64,000 bases of DNA from Candidatus Staskawiczbacteria bacterium. GTDB taxonomy: Bacteria; Patescibacteriota; Minisyncoccia; Minisyncoccales; Staskawiczbacteraceae. The notes below the pieces were generated by a model. That model saw nothing but the letters and a program-made list of their open reading frames with translations. It made no database searches and was not told where the DNA came from. Of this stretch, positions 5,032 through 63,249 are shown in pieces. Where the stretch lies: positions 1,002 through 65,001 of the forward strand of contig CAILLM010000003.1 in NCBI GenBank assembly GCA_903835075.1, in the 5' to 3' direction. A program made the translations under genes and the position numbers. Numbering within the stretch: position 1 is the first letter of the stretch; every line of letters begins with the position of its first letter.

Positions 5032-5181
5032 AAGGCGAGGTAACAAACTTATAGCGAGACAGTTAATTTTTAGCGTATTTCAGGACACGAAGTGCCTGAC
5101 GAAGCCATTTAGACGCGAAACGTATCAATGGCGGTAGCAGAAAATTAATTGCCGAGCGATAAAAACGCTTGTTGCCGAGCG
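5032..5181. repeat. Composite GC-rich palindromic element, nested copy (A-type core)
   Basis: GGCGAGG.. / AGCGAGAC left boundaries, two GCCGAGCGA right boundaries; core hairpin TCAGGACAC-GAA-GTGCCTGA. Near-identical to the copies at 12827 and 56959. Confidence 0.85.
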
Positions 5182-5187
5182 AAAAAA

Positions 5188-12819: not shown

Positions 12820-12826
12820 GTAATTT

Positions 12827-12973: not shown

Positions 12974-12974
12974 T

Positions 12975-15402: not shown

Positions 15403-15514
15403 ATTTTTTGTTTAGTTTGAAGCGAAGTAATAAACTTTTTGAAGGTTTAGGTCTACTTGCTCAAAGAGCAAGAGGGAAACCTGCTACCGGAAAAAAGTTT
15501 GTTACTGAGCGTGA

Positions 15515-25164: not shown

Positions 25165-25192
25165 AACTTTTTTGCCACGTGGCAAAAAAGTT
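25165..25192. promoter_or_regulatory. Perfect 28-bp palindrome flanking PaaX-like gene 1 (upstream copy, candidate operator)
   Basis: AACTTTTTTGCCACGTGGCAAAAAAGTT, 34 nt upstream of the start codon at 25131. Confidence 0.85.
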
Positions 25193-25226
25193 ACTGCAAT
25201 CATATAATATATAATATCTATGTATT

Positions 25227-27352: not shown

Positions 27353-27397
27353 ATAATACTTAATTTATAATTTTTAATTTAAAATTTCTGATTTACT

Positions 27398-27510
27398 AGC
27401 GAGGCAGTGAATTCGAAGCGTACCCTGCAGGCCCGCCCAGGGCGGGCCGAAGCCTGAGTGAGTTGCGCGCTGGCGCAACGAACGCTAGCGGAGAATTCAC
27501 TGCCGAGCGA
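27398..27510. repeat. Composite GC-rich palindromic element (B-type core) in the rpsG-fusA spacer
   Basis: AGCGA-GGCAGTGAATTC...GAATTCACTGCC-GAGCGA; internal hairpins GGCCCGCC-CAG-GGCGGGCC and TTGCGC-GCTG-GCGCAA; ends 2 nt from the rpsG stop. Confidence 0.9.
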
Positions 27511-27511
27511 T

Positions 27512-41146: not shown

Positions 41147-44100
41147 TTAATTAATAATAAATGAAGTAGACCCTGTGCATGTCCCTTTTGTTCCAGTAGG
41201 CACCGCAACCTGCCAATAAACATTTTGAGTAACAGTTGGAGTTGATTGTGTTGGCTTGTTTAAATTTGCCCCAACATCAGTTGCTGTAACAGACAAAGCT
41301 GTTCCCGCACCATAACTAAAACTACTCAAATTATATTGCTGATTACCAACTGGTATAGAGGATCTAACCGAACACCCCAAATTGTTACCAGCAACTTTGA
41401 ATCCTGTTGCAATGTTACCGGTGTTAGTAACTGTTACTGTATGGTTTCCAGTTGTATTATGATTTGGAGTAAGTGAACCATAACTTATGGTTGCCCCAAC
41501 ATCAATAGATTTTAATGTATCCATTTCAATCCCCGAAGAAGTTGTTCCTGTACCCCCGCCAATGTGATCTGATGGCGTAATTTTGCAAAGCCAATTTTCA
41601 GAAGAATAAGTCCCCGAATCTGTTGCATCGGCGTAATAATAAACCGGGAATGTGCAAGTATAAATTTGCGTGTTACCCGACCCTCCCGAGGCAACACACT
41701 GGCTGGTGAGGGTATAATGGTTTGCCCTATCATCACTTGCGCCAACACCAATTCCGCTTCTATATAACACTGCAGTAACTCCAGTTAAGTCGGCGTACCC
41801 GTTAGCGTCGTAGGCAGTTGCCGAGCATACAACATTTTTAGTTGTCCCCTCCATTAAAGTTATGTCAGTTGAAGACAAAGTTGTGGCATCATAAGTTAAA
41901 ACACTTCCCGATATATACGGCAAAGTATTAAATTGCCAACCCAAGTTATTACCACCATCGGTGCTGTTTTGTTGTTGAATTGGCTGCGCTGCTCCGTTTG
42001 ACGCATTATTATCATAAACAGTTGCATATTGAACATAGGCATGGCCGTGGTTATCAGAAACAACAGCAATGTCTAAGCGTGCTCTACCAGCTTTAGCACC
42101 GTCGGTTCCGGCTTGATCAGATTTTAACAAAATATTGTGCCCATTTGAACCTTCCAATTGAAACGTGCCGGAAATTGTTGTGGTTGTTGCTTGCGGAAAA
42201 ATAATTATTTGGCTTGGCGTAATGGCTGTAAAATTATAAAACGTTGTTGTGCCAGAAATTGTTGTGGTTGCACCAGAAAATACAACCGCACCAAGTTGTG
42301 GCGTAAAAGTTCCTGTATTTGCCCAATTTCCTGTGTTTGTAATTCCATAATTGCTTCCACTTTTAGCATCAAGCGTACCGGCTGTAATATTTACTCCGGC
42401 CACCGTAATATTTGTTGGCAACGTAAATGTTCCGCCATTGCCGTTTATTTTTAAAATTGCATTTGTGTAAGTCCAATTTTTAATATCTCTTGTACCAGAA
42501 GTAGCAGTATATTCCACCGTTGAACCAGCGCTTAGCGTTGGCGTTGAAACAGTTTCTCCGCCTTGCAGTTGAAGCTTTGCAGTTGAAACAAAAGTTGGCG
42601 AAGTTAAATTATTCCCAGCTAAATTAAGAACCCCAGTAGAACTTAAGGTTGTGCTTACTGCCGATTGATTTCCAGCCAAGGTTACTGTGTTTGAGTCAAT
42701 TACAACCGTATCATAAGAACCAGGATAACCCACCCCCTCTACATTTCCCGCTTTTCCCCAAGTAGCACCTAAGTTCCAATTTCCGTTTACAGCATCGTTG
42801 AAAGAAATTGGCGAAGTTGAACCACCATCAGTTATTGTCCAGCCATAAGTTCCTGTTAAAACTCCGCGTGCGGTTGCCGGAGCACCTGTATAATATTTTG
42901 CACCACCTCCGCTAAAGGTTATCCCTGATTTTACGACTTGCCCAGACCAGCCTACTAATATGTTGCTATAGTTGATAGAAGATAACCCAGAGCTTGTGAA
43001 CATACTAGCCATACCTCCGGCAGCAGTAACTCCAGTCACATTCCAAGTGGCAAGATTTTGATTAAATACAGTGGCGCCATTAAACATATTACTCATTGTT
43101 GTAACACTTCCCGTGTTCCAACCACTTATGTTTTGATTAAAAGCGGTACCCGTAAACATATAACTCATATCTGTTACATTCGCAGTGCTCCAACCGCTTA
43201 TATTTTGATTAAAAGCCCCGTCGTATCCAAACGCATAACGCATGTCCGTAACACTTGACATATTCCAACTTCCAATTGGTTGGTTAAATGGTGCGTTAAA
43301 AAACATCGTATTTATAGATTTAGCACTAATCGTATTCCAGTTCCCAATTGGCTGGTTGAATCCTGACGCTCTAAATGTACCAGCAAAACTCGTAACTTTT
43401 GAAACGTCCCAATTATTTATTGTATTGCTACCACCGTTATTAAAGGCGGTGGCGGTAAAAAACATAGACCCCATATTAATAAGACTAGTTGGAGTCCAAG
43501 CTCCAATGTTTTGGTTAAAAGCAGTGTCTGAATCAAACATGGACAGCATAGTTGTAACTTTGGAAACATTCCAACCTCCAATATTTTGGTTGAACACAGC
43601 ATCCGATTGAAACATATAACTCATATCCCCCACATTCCCTGTGCTCCAACTTCCGATGGGTTGGTTAAAAACAGTCGAAGTAAACATCCATTTCATATCA
43701 GTAACTTTTGATGTATCCCAATTATTTATCGTATTACTACCACCGTTATTAAAGGCACTGGCGTTGCGGAACATGCTATTCATGGTTGTTACAGCTTCTG
43801 TACTCCAACCACCAATGTTTTGGTTAAAGGCCGTACCAAAAAACATACTAGCCATACCCGTGACCTTTGCGGTGTTCCAACTTCCAATGGACTGATTAAA
43901 ATTAGTGTCATAAGCAAACATAGCGGTCATATCTGTAGCACTTATGGTGCTCCAATTTCCAATGGGTTGATTAAATGCAGTATCCTGATAAAACATATAG
44001 CCCATTGTCCCAACCTTTGAAACATCCCAGTTATTTATTGTATTGCTACCACCGTTATTAAAGGCATTAGCACCAAAAAACATATTTGCCGTGTCTGTAA

Positions 44101-46126
44101 CACTTCCAGTATTCCAACCTCCAATGTTCTCATTAAAAGCAGCGGCACTATAAAACATGCGGTTTAAACTTGTAACGCTTGCCATATTCCAACTGCCCAT
44201 AGAAGGAGCAGTTATAATTCCGCTGGCCCTGAAAGCGCTACCCATGTTTGTTATTCCTGTCGTGTCCAAAGCGTCTACTGCGGTAATTCTTAAATTAGTG
44301 GTTCCATAAAAATAACTACCAACATTTCCCAATCTCAATATTCCCCATTGCGAAATAGTTTTTATCTTTAAAACGTCTCCAGTATTATTGAATTGCCAAC
44401 CAGTAAGCGTGCCCGTGATGCTCAGCGTATAGGTTCCCGAAGTTGCGTAAGTATGAGTGACTGCCGCCTGGTTCCATGCGGTAATTGTGCTGGTACTGGT
44501 GTCTCCCCAATCTACTACAAAATTATAAGTGCCTCCATTATACAAAGGAAGTTTAATCTGGCTTGCAGTGCTAGAACCCGTTGAAGTTAAAGTTGTATCC
44601 CATGTTGAAATAAAAGGACTTGGGTCAACAATGTAATCAAAATCCACACTTGCATTAACAACTTTTAAGTCAAAAAGGTCTGTTGGTTTTTGCAAATTTT
44701 GAAGTAAAATTCTGTATTTCTTCGCCTCGCCGAAGCCCGAAGGCGAAGGCGGGTCCGACGTAATATTACTAAAATCGGGGTTCATTCCGTCATTGACTGG
44801 CACTAATTTGTTACCCTCAGTTTGATTTCCATCGGCGTCTGTATAAACGGGGTAGACATCTATTGAACCTTCCATACCTGAATCGGTTGGTCTGGCAAAA
44901 ACAGTTATATCATTTCCAGTACTTAGAATTTGGTCAAAAGTTACCCGCACATAATTATCTTGCGGGACAGTTGCATAAACACCATCTTGCGTGGCAACAG
45001 TGTCATAAATATCAGCTGTTATGTTTTTATCAGCATCTAACTGAAAAGCCTTTGAAATAAAAATAATATCAAAAACTTGCTCAGACAAATGGGGGACAGT
45101 CCATTCCAAATAATCTATCATTCCATTACCATCTAAATCTTTGGCAGTAAATGGAACTTCTTGCCCATTACTATTTTTCCATTTAATTTTTATTTTATTT
45201 TCATCTCCAACTTTGTAGATTTCGGGGATTGTTGTAAAAGCCAAAACATCTGTTAATGGAGTTGTTTCGTCTTTAGCTGAAATAGTAACTTGTTGGCCAG
45301 TGTCTGTGTTGGTTTTCTCAATCACGGGAGCTGGGGCAACATATTCCACGGCAATACAATTATCAGTTTCATCTCCTTGGCAAGGTTGTTTGTCAATTAG
45401 GGGTTGATCTTGAACATCAGGGCTGGGGCTCGCTGGGTCAGCAGACTCAGTGTCCGGTTGAATAACAGGATCAGCAGGTTGCGCGGGCAATTCAGCTGGC
45501 GTCTCGGCGAGCGTTGCTTCCGAGCCTGACGTTGCTTCCGGAGTTGGTGTTACCTCCGGCGTGGTCAAGACTTCTGCTGTGCCAGATACATCAACAAATT
45601 GCGAACTATTATCTGGCAAAATAGCTGAGACAGCTCCTTCCACGGCCTGTTGCTCATCAGCTAAAAATAAGTTCATGCCATAAGCCAAGCTACCCAAAAA
45701 ATTTTTCGCATAATCTTTTTTAGCTACTGGCTTAACTACTTTTAATACATTTAATTTTTGGTCTATGGTAATTTCTGCACCCTTATTTTTCTCTATATTT
45801 CTTATTTCTGCAGGTGTTATTTTCTTAATTTTTATGTCTGTAGCATTCTTAGGAATTTTCACTAAGTGTTTACCATTTTTTATTTCATTAGCATCAACCA
45901 AAGTAACCATTTTTATAGGCAACCCCGCAACTACTTGTGCAACAGGTATAGTTCGTGCGTTTTTAAATGTGAATGTTTCTTCTCGCGAATGACTCAACTC
46001 AAACCAAACACCCCAAGCCACAAACAGCAGCACTAGGGCAAATAAAAATCCCAAAATTATATTTTTATTTTTGGTAAAAAAATTCACTAAAAACTTGCAA
46101 AATTGGTTTACAACTTTATTTTGCAT
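41147..46126 (-). CDS. Giant surface protein (1659 aa) built from five modules
   Basis: Continuous ORF. Modules: N-terminal TM anchor, shared stalk module, about 17 DUF285/BspA-type 26-residue repeats, beta-helix-like region, C-terminal domain shared with 40153-41097. Repeats of the form MF..a.aFNQ.IG.W.ts.Vt.M. Confidence 0.85.
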   Translation of the reverse strand: MQNKVVNQFCKFLVNFFTKNKNIILGFLFALVLLFVAWGVWFELSHSREETFTFKNARTIPVAQVVAGLPIKMVTLVDANEIKNGKHLVKIPKNATDIKIKKITPAEIRNIEKNKGAEITIDQKLNVLKVVKPVAKKDYAKNFLGSLAYGMNLFLADEQQAVEGAVSAILPDNSSQFVDVSGTAEVLTTPEVTPTPEATSGSEATLAETPAELPAQPADPVIQPDTESADPASPSPDVQDQPLIDKQPCQGDETDNCIAVEYVAPAPVIEKTNTDTGQQVTISAKDETTPLTDVLAFTTIPEIYKVGDENKIKIKWKNSNGQEVPFTAKDLDGNGMIDYLEWTVPHLSEQVFDIIFISKAFQLDADKNITADIYDTVATQDGVYATVPQDNYVRVTFDQILSTGNDITVFARPTDSGMEGSIDVYPVYTDADGNQTEGNKLVPVNDGMNPDFSNITSDPPSPSGFGEAKKYRILLQNLQKPTDLFDLKVVNASVDFDYIVDPSPFISTWDTTLTSTGSSTASQIKLPLYNGGTYNFVVDWGDTSTSTITAWNQAAVTHTYATSGTYTLSITGTLTGWQFNNTGDVLKIKTISQWGILRLGNVGSYFYGTTNLRITAVDALDTTGITNMGSAFRASGIITAPSMGSWNMASVTSLNRMFYSAAAFNENIGGWNTGSVTDTANMFFGANAFNNGGSNTINNWDVSKVGTMGYMFYQDTAFNQPIGNWSTISATDMTAMFAYDTNFNQSIGSWNTAKVTGMASMFFGTAFNQNIGGWSTEAVTTMNSMFRNASAFNNGGSNTINNWDTSKVTDMKWMFTSTVFNQPIGSWSTGNVGDMSYMFQSDAVFNQNIGGWNVSKVTTMLSMFDSDTAFNQNIGAWTPTSLINMGSMFFTATAFNNGGSNTINNWDVSKVTSFAGTFRASGFNQPIGNWNTISAKSINTMFFNAPFNQPIGSWNMSSVTDMRYAFGYDGAFNQNISGWSTANVTDMSYMFTGTAFNQNISGWNTGSVTTMSNMFNGATVFNQNLATWNVTGVTAAGGMASMFTSSGLSSINYSNILVGWSGQVVKSGITFSGGGAKYYTGAPATARGVLTGTYGWTITDGGSTSPISFNDAVNGNWNLGATWGKAGNVEGVGYPGSYDTVVIDSNTVTLAGNQSAVSTTLSSTGVLNLAGNNLTSPTFVSTAKLQLQGGETVSTPTLSAGSTVEYTATSGTRDIKNWTYTNAILKINGNGGTFTLPTNITVAGVNITAGTLDAKSGSNYGITNTGNWANTGTFTPQLGAVVFSGATTTISGTTTFYNFTAITPSQIIIFPQATTTTISGTFQLEGSNGHNILLKSDQAGTDGAKAGRARLDIAVVSDNHGHAYVQYATVYDNNASNGAAQPIQQQNSTDGGNNLGWQFNTLPYISGSVLTYDATTLSSTDITLMEGTTKNVVCSATAYDANGYADLTGVTAVLYRSGIGVGASDDRANHYTLTSQCVASGGSGNTQIYTCTFPVYYYADATDSGTYSSENWLCKITPSDHIGGGTGTTSSGIEMDTLKSIDVGATISYGSLTPNHNTTGNHTVTVTNTGNIATGFKVAGNNLGCSVRSSIPVGNQQYNLSSFSYGAGTALSVTATDVGANLNKPTQSTPTVTQNVYWQVAVPTGTKGTCTGSTSFIIN
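44720..44757. repeat. GC hairpin element (family GCCTCGCCGAAGC..GCGAAGGCGGG) in-frame in the giant gene
   Basis: CTTCGCCTCGCCGAAGCCCGAAGGCGAAGGCGGGTCC, translated as PPSPSGFGEAKK; related copies at 57390, 56711 (inverted) and 55869. Confidence 0.8.
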
Positions 46127-47450: not shown

Positions 47451-47603
47451 AGCGAGGAAAATGGGTTTTGTGGCGCGTTTCAGGACACAAAGTGCCTGAC
47501 CGAGCGAGTTAGTTTTGCGTAGGGTCGCGAGGAATTAATACGAAGTATAATTCCCCGACCTAGCAAAAATCACGAGCGTCGCAACAAAATCATTTTCCGA
47601 GCG
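47451..47603. repeat. Composite GC-rich palindromic element, divergent copy; its right arm overlaps the 3' end of the ComEC-like CDS
   Basis: AGCGA-GGAAAATGGGTTTTGT ... ACAAAATCATTTTCC-GAGCG; contains TCAGGACAC-AAA-GTGCCTGA and GGAATTA..TAATTCC hairpins. Confidence 0.8.
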
Positions 47604-48534
47604 TTATATTATTACCGTCAGAAATAAAGGTAACGTCACCATTTATGTCTGTTCTTAACACCTTTATACCAAAATTTTGCAATCTTTGCAAAGTTTCGGG
47701 CGTTGGGTGCCCATAAGAATTTTTCCCAACCTCAATAACCGCAAATTTTGGTGTTACACTTGCTAAAAATAAATCACTAGTTGAATATTTACTTCCATGA
47801 TGGGCCACTTTCAAAACATTGGCCAAAATATCTTGCCCTGAGCCGTGCCAAATGATTTCGCCAACAATCTCTTTTTCAGCTTTTGTATCTATATCTCCAG
47901 TAAATAAAAAAGAGTTTTTTCCATAAATTATTTTTGAGACCACGCATGAATCGTTAGAGCTACTTTTCATTTCTTTGCCTTCCATGCTTTGCAACGGATA
48001 AATTGTATCAATTAGAACATTGCCGGCTTTTATTTCCTGCCTGCCGGCAGGCAGGCCTGCCCCCGATTGTGCGACTATAATTTTGGCTCCCATATTTTTT
48101 TGATACGCCAAAATTTTCATCCATGCGTAATATTCTGGGGCTGATTTTTTAATGCCACTCCACAAAATATAATCTGCTTTATATCTTTGCAAAGCATATA
48201 AAATCCCTTGCATATGATCGGACTCAGGGTGAGTTAAAATTACTAAATCAATTGTTTTATCCCAAACTGGCATATTTTCAGATAATTTTCCCAAAACTGT
48301 GGCATTTGGCCCACCATCTATTAAAATTTGGTGGCCCTCTGGGGTTTCAATAAACTCTGCATCTCCTTGCCCAACACTTAAAAACACAACTTTCAAATAA
48401 TGTGAGCCATATAGAGAAAAAACTTCCTGCCATGCAACAAAATTCAAAACCAACAAAAATCCAACAATAAATAAAACCGCACTCTTTTTCATTTTAATTA
48501 AATATACCCTTTTGTAACTGTATAACCGTCTCAA
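47590..48534 (-). CDS. ComEC/Rec2-type metallo-beta-lactamase domain protein (N-terminal TM, no competence channel domain)
   Basis: 314 aa; HPESDHMQG, KVAHHGSKYS, YGHP. Alternative start ATG at 48492; contains the LPAGRQ palindrome insert. Confidence 0.75.
   Translation of the reverse strand: MRRLYSYKRVYLIKMKKSAVLFIVGFLLVLNFVAWQEVFSLYGSHYLKVVFLSVGQGDAEFIETPEGHQILIDGGPNATVLGKLSENMPVWDKTIDLVILTHPESDHMQGILYALQRYKADYILWSGIKKSAPEYYAWMKILAYQKNMGAKIIVAQSGAGLPAGRQEIKAGNVLIDTIYPLQSMEGKEMKSSSNDSCVVSKIIYGKNSFLFTGDIDTKAEKEIVGEIIWHGSGQDILANVLKVAHHGSKYSTSDLFLASVTPKFAVIEVGKNSYGHPTPETLQRLQNFGIKVLRTDINGDVTFISDGNNITLGK
48036..48055. repeat. 20-bp perfect GC palindrome in-frame in a CDS
   Basis: CCTGCCTGCCGGCAGGCAGG, translated LPAGRQ. 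Confidence 0.9.
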
Positions 48535-48604: not shown

Positions 48605-49132
48605 TTAGACTTTCTCAATTAAAAATATTTTGACATACTTTTCTAAAGAATGTGCTTGAAGCAAAGTTTCTGTTTTTTCTGAAACATCATACGGAGTTAT
48701 CCAAACGCTCTGCTGGAATAATTTATATCCCAAATTATGCAAGATACTTCTAAGCAAATCTCTGTCATTTCTGCGGTTTCTGGGTATATCAAAAATCATC
48801 ATTATCCACTTTCCATCTTTTCTTTTCTCAGCTTCTCCTAGCTTAAAACTAGCCATTATCGCCTTTTCGATTCCATCTTTTGTTAAAATTATTGCTTTTT
48901 TATTTTCTAAATTTTTTACTTTTATGTAACCCTTTCTTTTAAGATAATAGATAAAATTTCCAAATTGCTTCTCACTTTTTTCTTTCCGATACTTTTTATA
49001 TATAGGATTTTTTGGGCCTGGCAAAAAATTGTTCATCGTTATTGGTTGAGCTGAATAACGAACAACCTCTCCCGCTAAATATATAAATTTATAAACATCC
49101 CAAAGAAATTTATCGGTAATTGGAATTTTCAT
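48605..49132 (-). CDS. PaaX-like / Cas2-fold winged-helix regulator, second paralog
   Basis: 175 aa; KDGKWIMMIFDIPRNRRNDRDLLRSILHNLGYKLFQQSVWITPY. Confidence 0.6.
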   Translation of the reverse strand: MKIPITDKFLWDVYKFIYLAGEVVRYSAQPITMNNFLPGPKNPIYKKYRKEKSEKQFGNFIYYLKRKGYIKVKNLENKKAIILTKDGIEKAIMASFKLGEAEKRKDGKWIMMIFDIPRNRRNDRDLLRSILHNLGYKLFQQSVWITPYDVSEKTETLLQAHSLEKYVKIFLIEKV

Positions 49133-49420: not shown

Positions 49421-49430
49421 AATTTTTTGT

Positions 49431-49549
49431 AGCGAGGCAATAAATTTTTCAGCGAGGCAATAAATTTTTTGAAGCCCTGTGCACACGAAGTGGCTCAATA
49501 GCGAAAAAATTTGATTGCCGAGCGATTTTAAAAGTTTACTGCCGAGCGA
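49431..49549. repeat. Composite GC-rich palindromic element, nested copy (C-type arms)
   Basis: AGCGA-GGCAATAAATTTTTC-AGCGA-GGCAATAAATTTTTTGAAG ... CGAAAAAATTTGATTGCC-GAGCGA-...TTTACTGCC-GAGCGA. Confidence 0.9.
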
Positions 49550-49571
49550 ATATTATTTATATTAGACTATT

Positions 49572-51599: not shown

Positions 51600-52127
51600 C
51601 TATATAACTTTATATAAAATAAAGCTTGTTACTAATAAAAATATTACTGGCACCACAACTCTTTGATATGGAAAAAATACTTTTCCATTATTTTGTTTTT
51701 TTAAATACAAATTAAACCAATGCCCCAAATATAAAACTATAAATCCCATGACAGAACCTACAATTATTTTGTCTAAGCCCCAAATTTGATTTAATGGGTG
51801 CCCCACAATTCCGGCATAGTATAGTGGAATGTATGTTAGCAAAACATAAGCTAAGGTGATTACAATTCCATCATCAGTAAAGCTCCATTTTTTCTTTTTC
51901 ATGTAGTCTAAGGTCCAAGAAATAATGGCAATCATAAATGCTCCAATCCAAACTGAGGATACCACGTCGTCAATTCCAAACCAGCGTGAAAATCCAAGTC
52001 CAGCTCCAATTGCCACAACACAAACAGGGCAAACTTGCGCGCTTACAAAAGTTGCCCTGCCTACCGGCAGGCAGGCGAAAATAATTCCTAAAAATAATAA
52101 TCCTAAAAATAAATATTTATATTTCAT
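51600..52127 (-). CDS. Integral membrane protein with CPVC motif
   Basis: 175 aa, about 5 TM segments; QVCPVCVVAIGAG. Contains a palindrome insert; last gene of the copper/redox run. Confidence 0.55.
   Translation of the reverse strand: MKYKYLFLGLLFLGIIFACLPVGRATFVSAQVCPVCVVAIGAGLGFSRWFGIDDVVSSVWIGAFMIAIISWTLDYMKKKKWSFTDDGIVITLAYVLLTYIPLYYAGIVGHPLNQIWGLDKIIVGSVMGFIVLYLGHWFNLYLKKQNNGKVFFPYQRVVVPVIFLLVTSFILYKVI
52056..52075. repeat. 20-bp GC palindrome (1 mismatch) in-frame in a CDS
   Basis: CCTGCCTACCGGCAGGCAGG, translated CLPVGRA (read in a different frame from the other copies). Confidence 0.85.
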
Positions 52128-52138
52128 AAATTAAATGT

Positions 52139-52250
52139 AGCGAGGCAGTGAATTCAAAGCGTACCCTGCAGGCCCGCCCTGGGCGGGCCGAAGCCTGAGT
52201 GAGTTGCGCGCTGGCGCAACGAACGCTAGCGGAGAATTTACTGCCGAGCG
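52139..52250. repeat. Composite GC-rich palindromic element (B-type core)
   Basis: Near-identical to 27398-27510 (AGCGA-GGCAGTGAATTC ... GAATTTACTGCC-GAGCG); ends 6 nt from the upstream stop. Confidence 0.9.
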
Positions 52251-52255
52251 GGAAT

Positions 52256-52669
52256 CTATTTTATTCCAGCAACTGTCTTTAAAAAGTTGGGCACGTCCAC
52301 TTCTCCTATATAACATTTTCCCGCCTGCCCTGAGCTTGCCGAAGGGTCATATAAAAATGGCACCCCAACTGAATCCCCTTTTATGTTGCATATTTTTGCA
52401 ACCTGCGCTAATGTGCCCTGATTATTTTTATTATACCAAACTTCCATTCTAGTAATTTTTACCTTCTCTTCAATTTTATTTTCAGTTATAAATTTTTCAA
52501 CATCAGCACAGTGCGGACACCCCTGCCCATAAAACAAAACTATACCTGCAGGAAGCGGCGTAGCATTTATTGTTGAGCCGGGGCTAGAAAAAAATCCTGT
52601 TTGAAACCCCCAAAACATAAATCCTGCAAAAACTACAATAATAATAGTTAATATGATTGTTTTGTCCAT
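52256..52669 (-). CDS. Membrane-anchored thioredoxin/glutaredoxin-like protein
   Basis: 137 aa; N-terminal TM, GQGCPHC active site; GC-rich insert encoding SASSGQAG. Confidence 0.7.
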   Translation of the reverse strand: MDKTIILTIIIVVFAGFMFWGFQTGFFSSPGSTINATPLPAGIVLFYGQGCPHCADVEKFITENKIEEKVKITRMEVWYNKNNQGTLAQVAKICNIKGDSVGVPFLYDPSASSGQAGKCYIGEVDVPNFLKTVAGIK

Positions 52670-55425: not shown

Positions 55426-55431
55426 AAAATT

Positions 55432-55561
55432 AGCGAGGCAGTGAATTCGTAGCGTGCCCTGCAGGCAATTTTGCTTGGTCCGCCGATAGGCGGAAAATTG
55501 CCGAAGCCTGAGTGAGCCCGCGCTGGCGGGCGAACGCTAGCGAAGAATTCTCTGCCAAGCG
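55432..55561. repeat. Composite GC-rich palindromic element (B-type scaffold with substituted hairpins)
   Basis: AGCGA-GGCAGTGAATTC ... GAATTCTCTGCC-AAGCG; hairpins GGCAATTTT..TCCGCC-GATA-GGCGGA..AAAATTGCC and CCCGC-GCTG-GCGGG. Confidence 0.9.
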
Positions 55562-55563
55562 TC

Positions 55564-56952
55564 TTAATTTACAACTTCTATTGTTCCCCTAATCATTCCC
55601 ATGGTGCAAGAGAATCCAAAGGTTCCTACATTTTGTGGAGTAAATTCTTTTACAGAAACCTGCCCCGGAGTTAAATTGATTTCATCATTAAATAAATCCC
55701 TAGAAATAATAGCACCATTACAACCCAAAGAGTTTCCGGCAGTAATTTCCCATTTTACAGGAATTCCAGCTTTTACTTTGAAATAGTTTGGGCTATCTGC
55801 AGATCCTGTGGCTGTCATGGCAATAACCTGAACGCCATTAACAACTGGCGCCAAACCACCTTGCTTTTCCTCGCCGGAGCCTTGCGCGGAGGCGGGTGTT
55901 TGATTTTGATTTAAGTTAACTCCTAAAACCGCAACTTGATTAGACATATTAAATAGCGCGAAAAATATCACTAAAAATCCTGCTACCTTAGAAAATCTTT
56001 CAGCCAAGTGAGGTTTTGAAGAAAGCTTTACGCTTGAAAGTCCAATAAAAAATAATACTGGAATTGTTCCTAGCGCAAAAGCTCCCATTATTAATGCTCC
56101 GCTAATCATATTTCCAGACAATAATGCTAAACTTTGAGCAGTTATTGTAAACCCGCAAGGCAAGAAAAATGTTAACGCTCCCATAACAAACGGCATATAT
56201 TTACCGTGAAAATTATTTTCATTGGCAATTTTTCTTGTGAAACTTTTTGGTGCTGAAAGTTGAAATCTTCTGAAAGCTTTTACTCCAAGCATTTGCAACC
56301 CCAAAGCAATCATTAATAAAGAAATAGCAATAACCAAATATCCTGTAATTTGTGGTGAAATTTGCAATCTGCTACCAATCAAGCCCAAAACTCCACCCAA
56401 AATAATATAAGAGACTAATCTTCCCGCATTAAACATAATATGTGGCTGAAGTTTTTTTGATGTTTTATCATTTTCAGCATAAATGCTATTCCACTGTTTA
56501 GACATTGATAAAACAATTCCTCCAACCAAAGCAGCACAAGAAGACATTCCGGCTAAAAGTCCAAATCCAAAAAATGTAAAAATAGAAGATGTTGAGCTTA
56601 AACTTAAAAAATTAGCAATTCCTAATTTATCTAAAATTAAAAAAGCAATAATTATAAAAATTGCGATATTAAAAGCCACCAACGTTGGGTTGGCGCCCTT
56701 AGTGTCACCACCCGCCTTCGCGTTTTCGTGCTTCGGCGAGGCAAAGTCAGAAAAAGTATAATTCTCTTCTTTAAATAAATGACTTAATTTCTCTGGATTT
56801 GGTCTATCGCCATCAAATTCAATGGTCACTTCACCATTGCCAGTTGAAGCGTCAACTGCTTTTACATTTGGTAAATCCAGTAACTTTTTTTCTATTAAAA
56901 TTTCACACGAGGCGCAATGCATTCCCTTAACTTTATATGTGTGTTCATTCAT
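55564..56952 (-). CDS. HMA domain, TauE/DsbD-like membrane domain and C-terminal cupredoxin-like domain protein
   Basis: 462 aa; MHCASCEILIE, about 7 TM segments, C-terminal GCNGAIISRDL...FSCTMGMIRGTIEV. Confidence 0.7.
   Translation of the reverse strand: MNEHTYKVKGMHCASCEILIEKKLLDLPNVKAVDASTGNGEVTIEFDGDRPNPEKLSHLFKEENYTFSDFASPKHENAKAGGDTKGANPTLVAFNIAIFIIIAFLILDKLGIANFLSLSSTSSIFTFFGFGLLAGMSSCAALVGGIVLSMSKQWNSIYAENDKTSKKLQPHIMFNAGRLVSYIILGGVLGLIGSRLQISPQITGYLVIAISLLMIALGLQMLGVKAFRRFQLSAPKSFTRKIANENNFHGKYMPFVMGALTFFLPCGFTITAQSLALLSGNMISGALIMGAFALGTIPVLFFIGLSSVKLSSKPHLAERFSKVAGFLVIFFALFNMSNQVAVLGVNLNQNQTPASAQGSGEEKQGGLAPVVNGVQVIAMTATGSADSPNYFKVKAGIPVKWEITAGNSLGCNGAIISRDLFNDEINLTPGQVSVKEFTPQNVGTFGFSCTMGMIRGTIEVVN
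55869..55896. repeat. GC hairpin element (variant CCTCGCCGGAGC..GCGGAGGCGGG) in-frame in a CDS
   Basis: Translated within PASAQGSGEEKQGG. Confidence 0.7.
56711..56742. repeat. GC hairpin element, inverted orientation, in-frame in a CDS
   Basis: CCCGCCTTCGCG..CTTCGGCGAGGC is the reverse complement of GCCTCGCCGAAGC..GCGAAGGCGGG; translated within SPKHENAKAGG. Confidence 0.75.
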
Positions 56953-56958: not shown

Positions 56959-57100
56959 AGCAAGGCAATTTTTTTTAGCGAGGGAGTTAATTTTCAGCGT
57001 ATTTCAGTACACGAAGTGACTGACGAAGCCATTTAGACGCGAAGCGTATCAATGGCGTTAGCAGAAAATTAATTGCCGAACGAAAAAATTTTATTACCGA
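56959..57100. repeat. Composite GC-rich palindromic element, nested copy (A-type core)
   Basis: AGCAA-GGCAATTTTTTTT-AGCGA-GGGAGTTAATTTTC ... GAAAATTAATTGCC-GAACGA...; near-identical to 12827-12973. Confidence 0.9.
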
Positions 57101-57389: not shown

Positions 57390-57430
57390 CTTCGCCTCGC
57401 CGTAGCTCTTTTAAGGAGCGAAGGCGGGTT
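57390..57430. repeat. GC hairpin element in the csoR leader
   Basis: CTTCGCCTCGCCGTAGCTCTTTTAAGGAGCGAAGGCGGGTT. Confidence 0.8.
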
Positions 57431-57517: not shown

Positions 57518-58726
57518 CTATTTTATAATTCCGCCACCCAACACCTGGTTGCCTTTATAGAAAACTGCTGACTGGCCTGAAGTAATTGCGCGGTCTGATT
57601 TTTTAAAAACTAACTTACCGTCTTTATATAAAGTTGCTTTTTGCAAAGGTGCCCTATAACGCGTGCGAGCATCTACCAGCACTGGAAAAGCTTCTGGTTT
57701 ATTTATCCAATTTATGTTTACAATTTTTGCTTCTTTCACTGCCAAATCTTTTTCTGTACCAACATAAATAATATTTTTCTTTATGTCTTTTTTAACTACA
57801 AAATAAGGTCCGTGCCCATCTTTAATGTCTAAACCATGCCTTTGGCCAATTGTGTAGTAATAAACGCCATCGTGCTTACCTATTTTTCTGCCGTCTAAAG
57901 AAATTATTTCTCCTATTTTTGGCTTTATATACATTTTTAGGAAAGCCTTCATATCAAACTGCCCAATAAAGCAAACCCCTTGGCTGTCTTTTTTCTCAGC
58001 ATTTTCTAATTTAAATTTTTTAGCTAATTTTCTAACTTCCGGCTTTGTAAGCCCACCAATTGGAAATAAGATTTTGTTTAACTGATTTTTCTTAATTGCA
58101 TACAAAAAATATGTTTGATCTTTATTTTGGTCAACAGCCTTTAGCAAGCGAGGCAAAGCAATGGAGCGAGGCAATGAACTTTTTCGAGAAGAAGGTGCCC
58201 CGTAGAGAGGCTCTCCTCGCAGAAAAAGTTTATTGCCGAGCGAAGTTTGCTGGCGGGCGAACGCTAGCGAAGAACTCAGCGCCGAGCGATTTTTGTCGAG
58301 CGTAGTCTGCGCATAGTGGCCAGTTGCCACAAAATCAAAACCTTCTTTCATGGCCCTATCAAAAAAATAACCAAATTTTATAATTTTATTGCACATTACG
58401 TCGGGGTTTGGCGTAATTCCCTTTTTATATGAATCGATCATATATTTGCCCACTTCTGCCTCATATTCTTTAGAATAATCCCAAGTTAAAAAAGGGATTT
58501 GCAATCTAGCACAAGCTCGCATAGCATCCTGCCTGTCTGTTTTCCAAATGCACTCTTTACCTAAAATTTCTGGAGCCCATTGCTTCATATAAATTCCAAC
58601 AACATCAACCTGCCTGCCGGCAGGCAGGGACCAGCCCTTTTTTAGTAGTGCAGCCGAAACTGAGCTGTCTACACCACCAGACATCGCCACGGCAATTCTT
58701 ATTTTTTGTTTACTGCTCTTATGCAT
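57518..58726 (-). CDS. mnmA: tRNA 2-thiouridine(34) synthase MnmA carrying two repeat-derived inserts
   Basis: 402 aa; PP-loop AMSGGVDSS, ATGHYA, KDQTYFLY. Extra ~45 aa lie between the last two motifs. Confidence 0.9.
   Translation of the reverse strand: MHKSSKQKIRIAVAMSGGVDSSVSAALLKKGWSLPAGRQVDVVGIYMKQWAPEILGKECIWKTDRQDAMRACARLQIPFLTWDYSKEYEAEVGKYMIDSYKKGITPNPDVMCNKIIKFGYFFDRAMKEGFDFVATGHYAQTTLDKNRSALSSSLAFARQQTSLGNKLFLRGEPLYGAPSSRKSSLPRSIALPRLLKAVDQNKDQTYFLYAIKKNQLNKILFPIGGLTKPEVRKLAKKFKLENAEKKDSQGVCFIGQFDMKAFLKMYIKPKIGEIISLDGRKIGKHDGVYYYTIGQRHGLDIKDGHGPYFVVKKDIKKNIIYVGTEKDLAVKEAKIVNINWINKPEAFPVLVDARTRYRAPLQKATLYKDGKLVFKKSDRAITSGQSAVFYKGNQVLGGGIIK
58144..58302. repeat. Composite GC-rich palindromic element inserted in-frame in mnmA
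   Basis: AGCAAGCGA-GGCAAAGC..-AGCGA-GGCAATGAACTTTTTC ... GAAAAAGTTTATTGCC-GAGCGA-..GCTGGCGGGCGAACGCTAGCGAAGAACTCAGCGCC-GAGCGA. Confidence 0.85.
58609..58628. repeat. 20-bp perfect GC palindrome in-frame in mnmA
   Basis: CCTGCCTGCCGGCAGGCAGG, translated LPAGRQ. Confidence 0.9.
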
Positions 58727-58728
58727 AT

Positions 58729-59409
58729 TTATCCGTAATATTTTTCTAAATAAAATTTAATAAGTTGTTCAATTTCTGGAATTGCCTCGGGGTCACCAAC
58801 GCCAACTTTTAATTTCTTTTGAACGTCTAATAAAGTTCGTGCTCCTTCTAAAACTGCATCTTCAATGTCATGATCTGTAATGTTTAATCTTTTATCTATA
58901 ACTTTATGCCCCAAAACAATAATTTTTTCGTGTTGCCCCTTGCTTCTAAAATAATTATTAGCAGCTTGCATAAATGCTTTGTCGCACAATACAGAACAAT
59001 GCACTTTTCTAACAGGCAAACCGCCAAGTCGGCTCATTATGTCTTGCGGTTTAATTTTTAGAGCTTGGTCAACTGTCATTCCCCCTTTTTCTGTTACCAT
59101 AACTGAAAACATAGAAGTTGCCGCAATTGCAGAAGCACAACCAAAAGTTCTCCATTTTAGTTTTTTAATTTTGGGGTACCCTTTGGGTCCTTTGGGGTCA
59201 ACTTTGAACCAAATCTTCATTACGTCCCCACATTGAGGCGAGCCAACTTGTCCCTCTGCATCAAACTCACCCTTTTTAGGTAATTTTGCCAAAAAATTAT
59301 GCGGTTTAAAAAAATGGCTTTTAACTATATCCGAATAAATCCACCCCTCACCTGAGTGGGAGCTGGCAACATCTAATTTTTTAATTTTCTTTGTATTTTT
59401 TGTTTTCAT
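58729..59409 (-). CDS. iscU: Fe-S cluster scaffold protein (IscU/NifU N-terminal type with C-terminal extension)
   Basis: Start at ATG 59409; the track ORF starts at a TTG inside the repeat. Cys ligands in QCGDVMK, GCASAIA and HCSVL. Confidence 0.8.
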   Translation of the reverse strand: MKTKNTKKIKKLDVASSHSGEGWIYSDIVKSHFFKPHNFLAKLPKKGEFDAEGQVGSPQCGDVMKIWFKVDPKGPKGYPKIKKLKWRTFGCASAIAATSMFSVMVTEKGGMTVDQALKIKPQDIMSRLGGLPVRKVHCSVLCDKAFMQAANNYFRSKGQHEKIIVLGHKVIDKRLNITDHDIEDAVLEGARTLLDVQKKLKVGVGDPEAIPEIEQLIKFYLEKYYG

Positions 59410-59428
59410 AAATATTATTAATTTGTAA

Positions 59429-59523
59429 TGAGGCAATAAATTTTTTGAAGCGAGGCAGTGAATTCGAAGCGTACCCTGCAGGCCCGCCCTGGGCGGGCCG
59501 AAGCCTGAGTGAGCCCGCGCTGG
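59429..59523. repeat. Composite GC-rich palindromic element, right half missing
   Basis: ..GAGGCAATAAATTTTTTGA-AGCGA-GGCAGTGAATTCGAAGCG...GAGTGAGCCCGCGCTGGA, ending 2 nt from the iscS stop codon. Confidence 0.85.
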
Positions 59524-59524
59524 A

Positions 59525-60808
59525 TTAAACCCTTACATTTACTGGCGAAATTCTTCTTAAATCTGCTACAATTTTTGGTAAAACTTTCAAAACATAATCT
59601 AAATCTTTTTTTGTAGTACTTCTGCCCAAAGTGAAACGCAAATTACCGTTGGCATATTCATATGGCCTTGAAAGGGCTAAAATGACGTGTGAGGGCTCTA
59701 AACTTTGCGAGTCACATGCAGAGCCAGTTGAACAATAAATTCCATATTTATCAAGCCACAAAAGCATTGCCTCTCCTTCAATATCTAAAATAGAAATATT
59801 TATATTATTTGGTAATCGTTTTTGTGCGTGTCCGTTTAGAACAACCTTAGAAACTTTTTTGGAAACTTCTTTTATAAAATAATCTCGCAACTTGGCTTCT
59901 TTTGCAGATTCTTTTCCCGTTGCCTGAGAAATTTCTAAAGCCTTGGCCAAACCAATAATTCCCGAAATATTTTCTGTGCCACTGCGCTTGCCATTTTCTT
60001 GACCGCCCCCAAAAACTATTGGGTCAATTTTGGTACCAGCTTTAACATATAAGACTCCTGTGCCCTTAGGCCCATAAATTTTACTCCCATTTAAAGTTAA
60101 TAGGTCAACTCCTAATTTTTGAACATCTAAATCTAAATAGCCAGCTGCCTGGCAAGCGTCTGTATGAAAATAAATTGGGGTGCTTATATTTCTTTTGAAT
60201 CTATTTGCTCTTATTTCTTTAATAATTTTTCCTATTTCTTCTATTGGCTGAATGGTTCCAATTTCATTATTTGCATACATAATTGAAATCAAAACTGTTT
60301 CATCTGTTATTACTTTTTTAAAGTCTTCTAAAAGTAAAATTCCATCTTTATCAACTTTTGAAGAAGTCACCTTAAAACCCTCTTTTTCTAATTGCTCACA
60401 TGGGTACAAAACCGCATGATGTTCTATATTAGAAGTAATTATATGAGCCGATAAGGCCGAGCTAAATAAATTTTTGGAGGAGGGGTAATCGCCTTGAGGA
60501 CATTCCCCCGACGAGCAAAAATTTGATTTGGCGAGGCCGAGCGAACGCGCGCAGGCTCTCGCCACGCCTAAAATAGCTAAATTATCACTTTCTGTCCCAG
60601 AACCTGTAAAAATTATTTCTTCTGGTTTACAATTTAAAATTTGAGCTATTGATTTTCTAGCTTTTAAAATTGCTGTTTTTGATTCACGGCCTGCTGTGTG
60701 CAAAGATCCTGCATTACCATAAATTTTATTATAATAAGGCTCCATTGCTTTTAACACACGAGAATCTGTTGGAGTTGTAGATGCATTATCTAGGTAAATT
60801 TTATTCAT
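59525..60808 (-). CDS. iscS: Cysteine desulfurase carrying a repeat-derived insert
   Basis: 427 aa; YLDNASTTP, SKIYGPKGTG, STGSACDS. Extra segment RACARSLGLAKSNFCSSGECPQGDYPSSKNLFSSALS precedes HIITSNIEHHAV. Confidence 0.9.
   Translation of the reverse strand: MNKIYLDNASTTPTDSRVLKAMEPYYNKIYGNAGSLHTAGRESKTAILKARKSIAQILNCKPEEIIFTGSGTESDNLAILGVARACARSLGLAKSNFCSSGECPQGDYPSSKNLFSSALSAHIITSNIEHHAVLYPCEQLEKEGFKVTSSKVDKDGILLLEDFKKVITDETVLISIMYANNEIGTIQPIEEIGKIIKEIRANRFKRNISTPIYFHTDACQAAGYLDLDVQKLGVDLLTLNGSKIYGPKGTGVLYVKAGTKIDPIVFGGGQENGKRSGTENISGIIGLAKALEISQATGKESAKEAKLRDYFIKEVSKKVSKVVLNGHAQKRLPNNINISILDIEGEAMLLWLDKYGIYCSTGSACDSQSLEPSHVILALSRPYEYANGNLRFTLGRSTTKKDLDYVLKVLPKIVADLRRISPVNVRV
60445..60566. 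repeat. C-type palindromic element derivative inserted in-frame in iscS
   Basis: Arms AAATAAATTTTTGGAGG / GCAAAAATTTGATTT match the arms of 49431-49549; flanked by GCCGAGC and GGCGAGGCCGAGCGA. Confidence 0.75.
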
Positions 60809-61212
60809 TTTGTTAAACTTGCCAAAGTTATTGAATATAAAGTTTTTGATAAAGATTGCCCTACCTTATCCCAAACATTTTTTGACACACATTTTTTAGC
60901 CTTACTACATAGCACACAATTAACAGGATTTATCTTTCCGTCTATGGTTTCCACTATAATTCCTGCGGTAATTAGTTTCGATGATTTTGCCAAATAATAA
61001 CCACCATTAGCGCCGTGTATGGATGAAACTAACCCTGCTTTCTCTAAACAGCTAAAAATTTTACTTAAAAATTCAAAAGGCACTTCTTCAATATTCGAAA
61101 TTTGTCTTATAGAAACAGCCTTTTTACCGTGCCTACCGGCAGGCAGTCTTTTATTACGGGCGAGATGCACCATTGCAGTAAGTCCATATTCGGCTTTTTT
61201 TGATATTTTCAT
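60805..61212 (-). CDS. Rrf2-family (IscR-like) transcriptional regulator
   Basis: 135 aa; wHTH N-terminus, C-x2-C-x5-C cluster-ligand-like motif, 4-nt overlap with iscS; contains an LPAGRH insert. Confidence 0.8.
   Translation of the reverse strand: MKISKKAEYGLTAMVHLARNKRLPAGRHGKKAVSIRQISNIEEVPFEFLSKIFSCLEKAGLVSSIHGANGGYYLAKSSKLITAGIIVETIDGKINPVNCVLCSKAKKCVSKNVWDKVGQSLSKTLYSITLASLTK
61130..61145. repeat. GC palindrome (short variant) in-frame in the Rrf2 gene
   Basis: TGCCTACCGGCAGGCA, translated LPAGRH. Confidence 0.8.
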
Positions 61213-62062: not shown

Positions 62063-62560
62063 TTACCGATATTTATTTATTTCATATCCTGCAATCCCAA
62101 AGGATACCGAAACGTTTAACGACTCTTTTTGCCCCGACATTGGCAAAAATATTATTTTATCTGATTTTTTTAATATTGCTCTAGAAACGCCCTTAACTTC
62201 ATTTCCTAAAATTAATGCCAAGGGAAATTTAGGCTTTAACTTTAAATAATTTATAGCTTTCTTACCCGCCTGCCGAGCTGGCAGATCTTGCTCCAATGCT
62301 ACTATATTTATTTTACTCCTTTTTAATTTGTCTATCAACTTGTTGATGTTTTTACAATGCTCAAAAGAAACTGTTTTTTCAGCACCTAAAGCTGTTTTAG
62401 CTATTTTTTTGTGAAGCCCTTCTTCCCAAGTTGGCACCTGCCCAGTTATTCCACACAAAAAAATTTTAGTTACACCAAGAGCATCGGAAGTTCTAAAAAT
62501 AGAACCCACATTTTCTAAACTTCTAATATTGTCACAAATCACATAAAATTCCTTTTCCAT
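62063..62560 (-). CDS. SpoU/TrmH-family RNA 2'-O-methyltransferase
   Basis: 165 aa; ENVGSIFRTSDALG, LGNEVKGVS, SLNVSVSFGI; contains an LPARQAG insert. Confidence 0.8.
   Translation of the reverse strand: MEKEFYVICDNIRSLENVGSIFRTSDALGVTKIFLCGITGQVPTWEEGLHKKIAKTALGAEKTVSFEHCKNINKLIDKLKRSKINIVALEQDLPARQAGKKAINYLKLKPKFPLALILGNEVKGVSRAILKKSDKIIFLPMSGQKESLNVSVSFGIAGYEINKYR
62268..62284. repeat. GC hairpin variant in-frame in the SpoU gene
   Basis: CTGCC-GAGCT-GGCAG context, translated LPARQAG. Confidence 0.7.
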
Positions 62561-62619: not shown

Positions 62620-63249
62620 CTATTTTTCAGAGAAGCGTTTTTCTACTTCTGGCCAATTTACAACATTCCACCAAGCTTTTAAGTAATCTGCTCGGACATT
62701 TTTGTATTGCAAGTAATAGGCGTGTTCCCAAACATCGTTAGCTAAAATTGGAGTTTTTCCATTACTAATTGGATTTTCTTGGTTGGCTGTTGAAATAATT
62801 TCTAATTTACCTGAAGCATCTTTAACTAGCCACACCCAACCCGAACCAAACCTTTTCAACCCTTCGTCATTAAACTTTTGCTGAAATTCTGCAAAGCTTC
62901 CAAATTGATTTTTTATTTCTTCTGCTAATTTACCAGATGGCTCTCCTGCCTGCGCAGGCAGGCCTCCGGCGCTTGGTGACATTATTTCCCAAAACATTGA
63001 ATGGTTAACGTGCCCACCAGCATTATTTATAACTGCTGTACGAATATCTTCTGGGATGCTTTCTAAATTAATCAATAATTCTTCTGCGGTTCTTTCAAAT
63101 AATTCTGGATTTTTTTCAATAACTGCATTTAAGTTATTAACATATGTTGCATGATGCTTATCATGATGCAGCTTCATTATTTCTTCTGAAATATAAGGTT
63201 CTAAAGCATCATATGCATATGGCAATGCTGGTAATATATATTTTTCCAT
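62620..63249 (-). CDS. Fe/Mn superoxide dismutase with a 6-aa palindrome-encoded insert
   Basis: 209 aa; [14 protein letters not shown]; loop [18 protein letters not shown]. Confidence 0.92.
62945..62962. repeat. 18-bp perfect GC palindrome in-frame in the sod gene
   Basis: CCTGCCTGCGCAGGCAGG, six codons LPAQAG. Confidence 0.9.

Follow-up and report, generated by a model that had tools for sequence, protein, structure and literature searches.

A GC-rich block in the iscS gene of a Staskawiczbacteria genome is probably a decayed, in-frame copy of a dispersed hairpin repeat

The stretch of DNA considered here, hereafter the window, comprises 64,000 nucleotides of contig CAILLM010000003.1 (positions 1,002 to 65,001) from assembly GCA_903835075.1 of a Candidatus Staskawiczbacteria bacterium, a member of the Patescibacteriota. 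It harbours a minus-strand run of genes coding for an Rrf2 regulator, the cysteine desulfurase IscS, a NifU-N scaffold and MnmA, which together form an isc-type neighbourhood whose gene order is kept in the related contigs L081, L082, L084, L205 and L207. The iscS/nifS-type gene (59525..60808, minus strand) is an intact open reading frame (ORF) of 427 residues. Its product belongs to the class V aminotransferases (Pfam Aminotran_5, PF00266, E=5e-74) and matches solved cysteine desulfurases of the PDB with a best E-value of 1.7e-103. A first-pass annotation of this DNA had pointed out a GC-rich block within the gene and linked it to a palindromic element near position 49431; every string that it quoted, and the translation, are found at that place.

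Alignment with the PDB desulfurases pairs IscS residues 4-88 and 121-424 with chain positions 11-96 and 99-394, leaving about 30 residues unmatched. The extra peptide, SLGLAKSNFCSSGECPQGDYPSSKNLFSSALS, occupies residues 89-120 (60449..60544, minus strand) and corresponds to a net gain of 30 aa, whereas a pairwise alignment with the L081 protein places the 30-aa insert at residues 86-115. Read-through translation of 60449-60544 would yield peptides like SNFCSSGECPQGDYPSSK, and the minus-strand translation of the insert region reads ...GVARACARSLGLAKSNFCSSGECPQGDYPSSKNLFSSALSAHIITSNIEH.... The GC content of the insert reaches 50%, versus 33.9% in the remainder of iscS. The expectation that IscS/NifS proteins normally lack such a block agrees with the PDB gap at residues 89-120, and with the presence of the short loop ARANKNFGNHIITS in 30 of the 48 close homologues that were compared (Patescibacteria-type protein-database entries of 60-88% identity). 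A scan of a genome collection with IscS returned relatives of at most 57% identity among the matches listed, and close relatives were taken from the protein database and from contig look-ups. Other, unrelated IscS families do not conserve the inserted residues.

On the nucleotide level, the element-derived block covers 60454..60544 (nhmmer envelope) on the plus strand, that is, in the standard orientation of its family and antisense to iscS. It shows a degenerate left flank, GGCCGAGC (60455..60462; family consensus AGCGAGGCA), followed by a left AT-rich arm, AAATAAATTTTTGGAGG (60464..60480), which matches exactly the arm of the copy at 49459. A GC-rich variable core with a predicted hairpin of its own (GGGGTAAT ... 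ATTCCCC, 60481..60514) leads to the right AT-rich arm, GCAAAAATTTGATTT (60515..60529), and to the right flank, GGCGAGGCCGAGCGA (60530..60544), in which the canonical GCCGAGCGA stands after extra bases; all these parts are given on the plus strand. In the predicted fold, the two arms pair in a 9 bp stem and the core has its own stem, while a second small hairpin (60528..60563), predicted on both strands, associates the right flank with the host codons V-A-R-A (GGCGAGGCC ... GGCTCTCGCC). Canonical members of the family carry AGCGAGGCA on the left and TGCCGAGCGA on the right. The iscS copy keeps the right-hand GCCGAGCGA after seven additional nucleotides, TGGCGAG (including the last T of the arm), where five other aligned copies have a gap. 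The degenerate left flank and these seven nucleotides therefore designate the iscS copy as a derivative rather than an intact member. The first-pass annotation needs minor correction in that the element is antisense to iscS, that the net gain is 30 aa (90 nt), and that the copy is degenerate.

Several observations tie the block to the family of the 49431 element, as had been proposed. The arm pair AATAAATTTTT-N(35-65)-AAAAATTTGATT occurs three times in the 64 kb, twice in overlapping form at 49431/49451 and once in iscS, so that identical arms are found only in these two places; none is expected from 100 shuffles. The flank GCCGAGCG, present at 60536-60543 in the iscS block, is found 10 times in the window, always on the plus strand, versus 0.19 expected, and GCGAGGC 14 times versus 1.9. 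A profile hidden Markov model (HMM), built from 53 distinct metagenome copies only and searched against the window with nhmmer, matches 60465-60544 on the plus strand over its positions 9-76 of 76 (18.6 bits, E=1.1e-4). In addition, the iscS core resembles a recurrent core subtype seen in L099, L112 and L160. These sequence comparisons support the assignment of the iscS block as a significant, although diverged, member of the hairpin-repeat family of the window.

Insert-free alleles exist in relatives, as the first-pass annotation had suggested checking. The syntenic orthologue P0004/L081, 87-88% identical to IscS of the window, has the plain loop ARANEKFGTSIITS. In P0003 and P0005/L082, the same site holds in-frame deletion derivatives of the window insert, AFLTSLAKSNFYSSGEC (+9 aa) and LAKSNFGSGLSA (+6 aa), respectively, which have LAKSNF and SSGEC in common. 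P0002/L084 carries a 33-aa insert that corresponds to a near-canonical antisense-strand element, AGCGAGGTAAATGAAG ... AACTTTATTTGCCGAGCG, nested in an older shell common to L084 and the window. Altogether, 13 of the 48 homologues have an insert of at least 5 aa at this loop, with many lengths and sequences. The more distant IscS of L205 contains a separate family member in the same loop (3271-3345, E=1.3e-7), that of L206 (Giovannonibacteria-type) a different palindromic element, and that of L207 two short GC-rich inserts flanking the ancestral ANKNFGN. The inserts of L205, L206 and L207 therefore mark the IscS loop as a recurrent landing or tolerance site.

With regard to the enzyme itself, H130, K243 and C365 are unchanged in the 48 homologues. 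By their offset in the PDB alignment, they are the equivalents of H104, K206 and C328 of E. coli IscS, and thus of the His stacking on pyridoxal 5'-phosphate (PLP), the Lys forming the Schiff base with PLP, and the catalytic Cys, respectively. The AlphaFold2 (AF2) model of IscS has a mean predicted local distance difference test score (pLDDT) of 87 and a predicted template modelling (TM) score, pTM, of 0.88, and Foldseek comparison with IscS/NFS1 structures gives TM values of 0.90-0.95, normalised to target. The model thus predicts an intact fold despite the insert, and the catalytic residues are conserved. The insert appears as coil, with pLDDT <50 at residues 98-117, between helix 71-89 and strand 122-126 (the HIITS strand), and is predicted to be a disordered, Ser/Gly/Pro-rich surface loop of about 30 aa. 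In enzymes of this type, PLP is located at the C-terminal ends of the strands of the PLP domain. The insert comes before the opposite, N-terminal end of the first of these strands, from which we infer that it would project from the face away from the cofactor.

Three cysteines (C86, C97 and C102, including a CSSGEC stretch) lie in or at the edge of this disordered loop of a sulfur-transfer enzyme, which raises the question of whether the insert has been co-opted as a flexible Cys loop, acting for example as a persulfide relay or a partner-docking arm. That it is fixed in the population sampled (12 contigs record the identical protein) and that other lineages have repeatedly extended the loop would fit such a role. 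However, the cysteines result from the element sequence in this frame, the inserts of other lineages are unrelated in sequence, and the closest relatives differ, the insert being mostly deleted in P0003 and L082, replaced by another core in L084 and missing from L081. We therefore regard co-option as very unlikely.

Repeats typically give rise to assembly errors, and the present genome was assembled from a metagenome; the block might therefore also be an assembly chimera, or the gene a pseudogene that has stayed open. Yet the identical 427-aa protein is found on 12 contigs, the places shown representing three samples, and a second assembly, L209, is 99.5% identical to the window across 2.9 kb including the insert, from which it follows that the insert is no assembly artefact. 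Furthermore, the intact ORF preserves all its catalytic and nearly invariant residues, the model has high confidence except in the insert, and syntenic relatives have related inserts at the same codon positions. We give hardly any credence to the chimera or pseudogene reading. No polymorphism of the insert was seen in the population, the one second assembly being identical.

Two further departures from the reference proteins were noticed in this neighbourhood. A 9-aa segment of IscS within RANRFKRNISTP (residues ~198-211, ~60176-60217) is missing from the best-matching PDB desulfurases. It is present in most of the Patescibacteria homologues shown, P0048 lacking most of it, and it looks like an older lineage feature and not like a recent element insertion. 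In NifU, four additional residues, GPKG, are inserted at positions 83-86 (59179-59190) in comparison with L081 and also with L082; they resemble a small tandem duplication (PKGPKGYPK) more than a palindrome.

The family to which the iscS block belongs is defined by conserved ends, AGCGAGGCAAT ... ATTGCCGAGCGA, by co-varying AT-rich arms, and by a variable GC-rich hairpin core. The ends pair with each other save for a tandem G.A/A.G mismatch, in a C-GA-G context on both sides. The core is itself a hairpin, the commonest one containing CACGAAGTG, and copies fold as long hairpins. The conserved asymmetric C-GA-G mismatch and hairpins with GAA loops, both of which are stable motifs, are found on one strand only. 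Native arm pairs fold at -7.6 kcal/mol versus -5.3 kcal/mol for swapped ones, and better in 43 of 53 copies (Wilcoxon p=7e-7). Element lengths range from 70 to 150 nt with no bias towards multiples of three. The window contains at least 12 copies, all on the plus strand, amounting to 2.3% of its length; the best HMM match lies on this strand at every locus, and the much weaker overlapping minus-strand matches at some of them arise because the element is palindromic.

The copies of the window are listed here with their positions, all on the plus strand. The intergenic reference copy, the '49431 element' (49429..49552), is a long nested hairpin in which an inner canonical copy (49451-49525, nhmmer E=4.6e-19) sits in an outer shell (left part, E=1.7e-3). 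The element in mnmA (58146..58292, E=4.2e-14, residues ~147-192) has an inner canonical copy at 58165-58243 within fragments of an outer one. A nested or truncated copy in the iscS-nifU spacer (59430..59523; nhmmer 59430-59473, E=1.8e-5) abuts the iscS stop codon, and another intergenic copy separates rpsN from rpsH (15421..15511, E=4.3e-8). Two subfamilies, of 134 nt and 113 nt, have flanks in common. The former (repeat families D3 and D8) comprises a double-shelled copy (5035..5185; nhmmer 5053-5159, E=7e-7), two sister copies (12826-12975, nhmmer 12844-12950, E=1e-5; 56960-57100, nhmmer 56977-57082, E=4e-4) and a degenerate copy (47452-47560). The latter (repeat families D4, D9 and D11) comprises a copy between rpsG and fusA (27397..27511, hairpin fold z=-5.3) and sister copies at 52138-52252 and 55431-55563. 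Nesting of an inner canonical copy in an outer degenerate shell is frequent, being observed at 49429-49552, 5035-5185 and 12826-12975, in the mnmA block and in L084.

Beyond the window, metagenome contigs were scanned with the pattern GCGAGGCAAT-N(45-75)-ATTGCCGAGCG, which gave at least 120 matching stretches. Among the 80 loci listed, 58 were AT-rich contigs, 57 of them with clear family members, and about 22 were chance matches in GC-rich contigs. The repeat is thus widespread, being scattered over many related genomes besides the present one. A single match in viral contigs, in a contig of 59% GC, was due to chance. Rfam at its gathering thresholds recovered one tRNA only from the whole window, and nothing from 58100-60600 at E up to 1; the element is no described RNA family. 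The literature searched contained nothing relevant on elements of this kind from Patescibacteria or the candidate phyla radiation, and the repeat family is apparently undescribed.

The orientation of the element is strongly biased. Of 56 informative metagenome loci, 47 have it antisense to the host or flanking genes, five sense and four mixed. Most copies are intergenic and sit tightly between stop and start codons in operons. In the window, nearly all genes lie on the minus strand and the GC skew of the plus strand is -0.16 throughout. Reading frames through the elements are open in 67% of cases in the gene-sense direction, 31% in the other orientation and 19% in shuffles. Antisense copies can thus be read through, because the gene-direction frames are poor in stops; since intergenic copies have the same orientation bias, translation alone is not its cause. 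The bias would come either from the insertion mechanism or from selection on one strand, gene and replication direction being confounded here. An intron, an intein or a translational bypass was considered and rejected for the intragenic copies: every one of them keeps the frame open, and no endonuclease or splicing domain is present.

The insert in IscS is not isolated. The mnmA gene of the window carries two inserts, the larger of which, seen as a PDB alignment gap between residues 146 and 193, consists of 43-46 aa and derives from the nested element; it is absent in L081, and L082 has the inner element only. Compared with the empty site, the filled one has 15 nt replaced, with no clean duplication. 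The second mnmA insert is the short perfect palindrome CCTGCCTGCCGGCAGGCAGG (58608..58628, no strand assigned), which adds 5 aa in the L081 alignment or 7 aa in the PDB alignment around WSLPAGR. L081 mnmA has neither insert, and L082 mnmA lacks the CCTGCCTGCCGGCAGGCAGG one. Further in-frame antisense copies are found in mnmA of L091 (734-801), L103 (239-323) and L152 (660-733), and probably of L098; they occupy roughly the same hairpin turn, and their ends agree while their cores differ. The tRNA-guanine transglycosylase (TGT) gene of L088 likewise contains an in-frame antisense copy at 5279-5355. In these in-frame copies, the motifs SLGNQIF (SLGNQ.F) ... KNLLPR, encoded by the element ends, recur. 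The first-pass annotation had named iscS and mnmA as genes with element-derived inserts, which holds for both, but the extent was understated: relative to L081, GC-rich palindrome-derived in-frame inserts occur in 5 of 10 compared genes, namely those for Rrf2, IscS, MnmA, SpoU and superoxide dismutase (SOD).

Beside the hairpin family, a second family of short, GC-rich, near-perfect palindromes (CCTGCCTGCCGGCAGGCAGG and variants) is found in frame in at least 4-6 genes: mnmA (58608-58628), the Rrf2 gene (61128-61146), the SpoU gene (62262-62290), the SOD gene (62944-62966), an ORF with a metallo-beta-lactamase (MBL) fold (48036-48058) and a 175-aa ORF (52057-52078). They encode 5-7 residues of the type LPAGRQ / LPARQAG / GLPAQA, and the mnmA, Rrf2, SpoU and SOD inserts are missing from the L081 orthologues. 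Allowing up to 2 mismatches, 9 overlapping matches to the core 12-mer were counted versus 0.57 expected. Another type of GC-rich hairpin (for instance TTCGCCTCGCCG ... GGCGAAGGCGGG, and CCCGCCTGCCCTGAGCTTGCCGAAGGG) lies mostly at gene ends (44714-44766, 55870-55900, 56700-56748, 57392-57428 and 52312-52352), one of these hairpins resembling an insert in the IscS loop of L207. The window also contains two giant minus-strand ORFs, 41147-46126 (1659 aa) and 30906-37697 (2263 aa), the former with ~75-nt periodic repeats at 43061-44140.

Close relatives vary in their element load, GCCGAGCG being absent from 9 kb of L081. The iscS-nifU spacer, which contains no element in L081 and L082, is occupied by different copies in the window and L084. 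The spacer differences and the unequal load, together with the nested shells and the different cores at orthologous sites, fit an element that is still moving and often lands in resident copies.

Taken together, we consider it highly probable that the insert is a decayed, in-frame, antisense copy of a selfish hairpin repeat, tolerated in a permissive loop of IscS. An element copy would have landed, antisense, in the codons of the short loop joining helix 3 to the first strand of the PLP domain. The gene would have stayed open because the element has few stops in the gene direction and its net length, 90 nt, is divisible by three. Ribosomes would then pass through it and produce a Ser/Gly/Pro-rich loop of about 30 aa, predicted to be disordered. 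The copy may be tolerated rather than useful, and would have been eroding since by point changes and, in sister lineages, by in-frame deletions. As for movement, we favour a single-strand, hairpin-based mechanism supplied in trans, new copies often inserting inside resident ones.

Some results weigh against this reading of a tolerated selfish copy. In a neighbour-joining tree, the insert-free P0004 is nested among insert-bearing IscS proteins with short branches, and for this reason a single ancestral insertion is not established; the pattern could be due to several insertions, to a precise loss or to poor resolution of the tree. No transposase or other mobilising gene was detected by Pfam on the unannotated ORFs of the window, and none is enriched in 337 kb around 57 metagenome copies, where clustering of 351 ORFs gave housekeeping families, PaaX/Cas2-like proteins in 4 loci and an unannotated 249-aa family in 3 loci. 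Likewise, apart from a single A on either side, no direct repeat recurs among 53 copies that would mark a target-site duplication. Because neither a mobilising gene nor an evident target-site duplication was found, mobility is deduced from presence/absence differences only. Finally, the inner mnmA copy (58165-58243 vs L082 ~6245-6345) is 98.6% identical between the window and L082 at the nucleotide level, against 79.8% for the rest of mnmA and 59% at its third positions, and no other 26-codon window of mnmA exceeds 93.6%. This is odd for purely neutral junk and suggests either nucleotide-level constraint or selection, or a recent renewal or conversion.

The identity of the mnmA copies keeps alive, at modest probability, the reading of the family as a functional nucleic-acid module, either an operon RNA hairpin or a strand-specific single-stranded DNA site, maintained by nucleotide selection. 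In that case, expression of the isc operon would be affected by the copies in iscS and mnmA, for example through mRNA processing or stability or through translation pausing, and the peptide would be a by-product. The strong and consistent gene-relative orientation, shared by intergenic copies, their tight placement between stop and start codons, the co-variation of the arms, and the occurrence on one strand only of the conserved C-GA-G mismatch and the GAA-loop hairpins speak in the same direction. However, Rfam has no match even at E up to 1, promoter- or terminator-like sites are not in excess in the elements (the corresponding scan gave nothing specific in the iscS insert), and cores are highly variable, orthologous sites having different ones. 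Moreover, the iscS copy no longer has a left flank of the canonical type and is undergoing deletion in sister lineages, and close relatives such as L081 are without any copy in the operon. On balance, we consider a functional module unlikely.

A reading that we rate as improbable combines mobility with constraint: the family would be a strand-specific, structure-selected hairpin module that homes into resident copies and is under nucleotide-level constraint even in coding sequence. Such a module could consist of conserved ends with tandem sheared G.A pairs, co-varying arms and exchangeable cores, and homing could give rise to the nested shells and to the turnover of cores at fixed sites, for instance the IscS loop and the hairpin of mnmA. 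Small PaaX/Cas2-like proteins, which are multi-copy and seen near elements, are a candidate partner. If true, this would suggest that Patescibacteria have an undescribed mechanism based on single-strand DNA or RNA, maybe with an unrecognised protein partner.

As regards these proteins, two with a PaaX central Cas2-like domain are encoded in the window at 24592-25131 and 48605-49132 (Pfam E=2e-16 and 6e-20, respectively). The ORF at 24592-25131 is bracketed by identical perfect 29-nt palindromes, TAACTTTTTTGCCACGTGGCAAAAAAGTT, at 24562-24590 and 25165-25193. A 193-aa ORF family with, by eye, the same PaaX/Cas2-like motif lies at most a few kb from copies in 4 of 57 metagenome loci.

Returning to the selfish repeat, its behaviour is best compared with that of the Rickettsia palindromic elements (RPEs), reportedly described by Ogata et al. 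in 2000. Both systems consist of short palindromic repeats of ~100-150 bp, dispersed in a small AT-rich genome; the comparison is one of behaviour, no relation in sequence being expected, and the host here is a member of the Patescibacteria and not Rickettsia. RPEs insert in frame in many housekeeping genes (review, PMC10969869). Similarly, the copies described here are in frame in unrelated housekeeping genes (iscS, mnmA and the TGT gene), with peptides that the models predict to be compatible with the fold, and both systems differ by presence/absence between related genomes. In contrast with RPEs, which are described as encoding a conserved peptide, only the end motifs SLGNQIF and KNLLPR recur here. 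The present elements also differ in that they form GC-rich islands whose ends are conserved and asymmetric and whose cores vary strongly, in that they are often nested, and in being mostly intergenic with a near-uniform orientation relative to genes.

Other known repeats share some of these properties. Repetitive extragenic palindromic (REP) sequences, and the related BIMEs and REPINs, which RAYT transposases mobilise, likewise occur in large numbers as short imperfect palindromes, located for the most part between genes of one operon and able to form one-strand hairpins with conserved mismatch positions. REPs are extragenic by definition, and their ends carry a GTAG-type tetranucleotide, which the ends of the present family do not have. 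The elements described here are longer (70-150 nt), have variable cores and occur also inside genes, and unlike the REP-RAYT systems they come with no RAYT or Y1 transposase in the window and sampled loci. Bacterial MITEs (transposable elements of the miniature inverted-repeat kind), such as Correia/NEMIS, ERIC, Coxiella QMITE and BOX, can form in-frame fusions with host ORFs (PMC10969869). Like them, the present elements are small, non-autonomous, non-coding and multi-copy (at least 12 per 64 kb), with inverted ends that pair save for a 2-nt mismatch. However, neither the window nor the 337 kb surrounding 57 copies yielded a parent insertion sequence whose ends match, target-site duplications are not evident, and orientation is strongly biased.

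In integrons, attC sites are found downstream of ORFs, with one orientation, and are recognised in their folded, single-stranded form. They resemble the elements in being imperfect palindromes with conserved ends, variable centres and a strand-specific asymmetry, but the latter lack an integrase, a cassette array and the R/L box consensus (GTTRRRY), and are scattered in ribosomal and housekeeping operons. TIGR units form tandem arrays beside a Tas (Nop-domain) gene, with box C/D motifs and 8-12 nt spacers (PMC12045711). Hairpin-flanked units, variable interiors and an occurrence in candidate phyla radiation bacteria are common ground (PMC12045711), whereas the elements described here are single and dispersed, have palindromic cores and are without box C/D. 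A TIGR array was thus rejected on architecture and motifs.

By analogy, the repeat described here would therefore represent a new family for a known kind of event, the Rickettsia-like in-frame palindrome. The Rickettsia phenomenon, in which selfish palindromic DNA is read as protein, would then also take place in the ultra-small genomes of Patescibacteria, where inserts reach core enzymes of Fe-S assembly and tRNA modification, namely IscS, MnmA and TGT. Such inserts may enlarge and diversify protein loops and mark those that are permissive; they can also mislead orthology, domain annotation and structure prediction in uncultured lineages. The family as a whole, with its strand bias, its modular nesting and the conservation of its mnmA copy, is of more interest than the single insert. 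Being abundant, strand-biased and modular, it may provide a tractable entry to the question of how repeats spread with no visible transposase.

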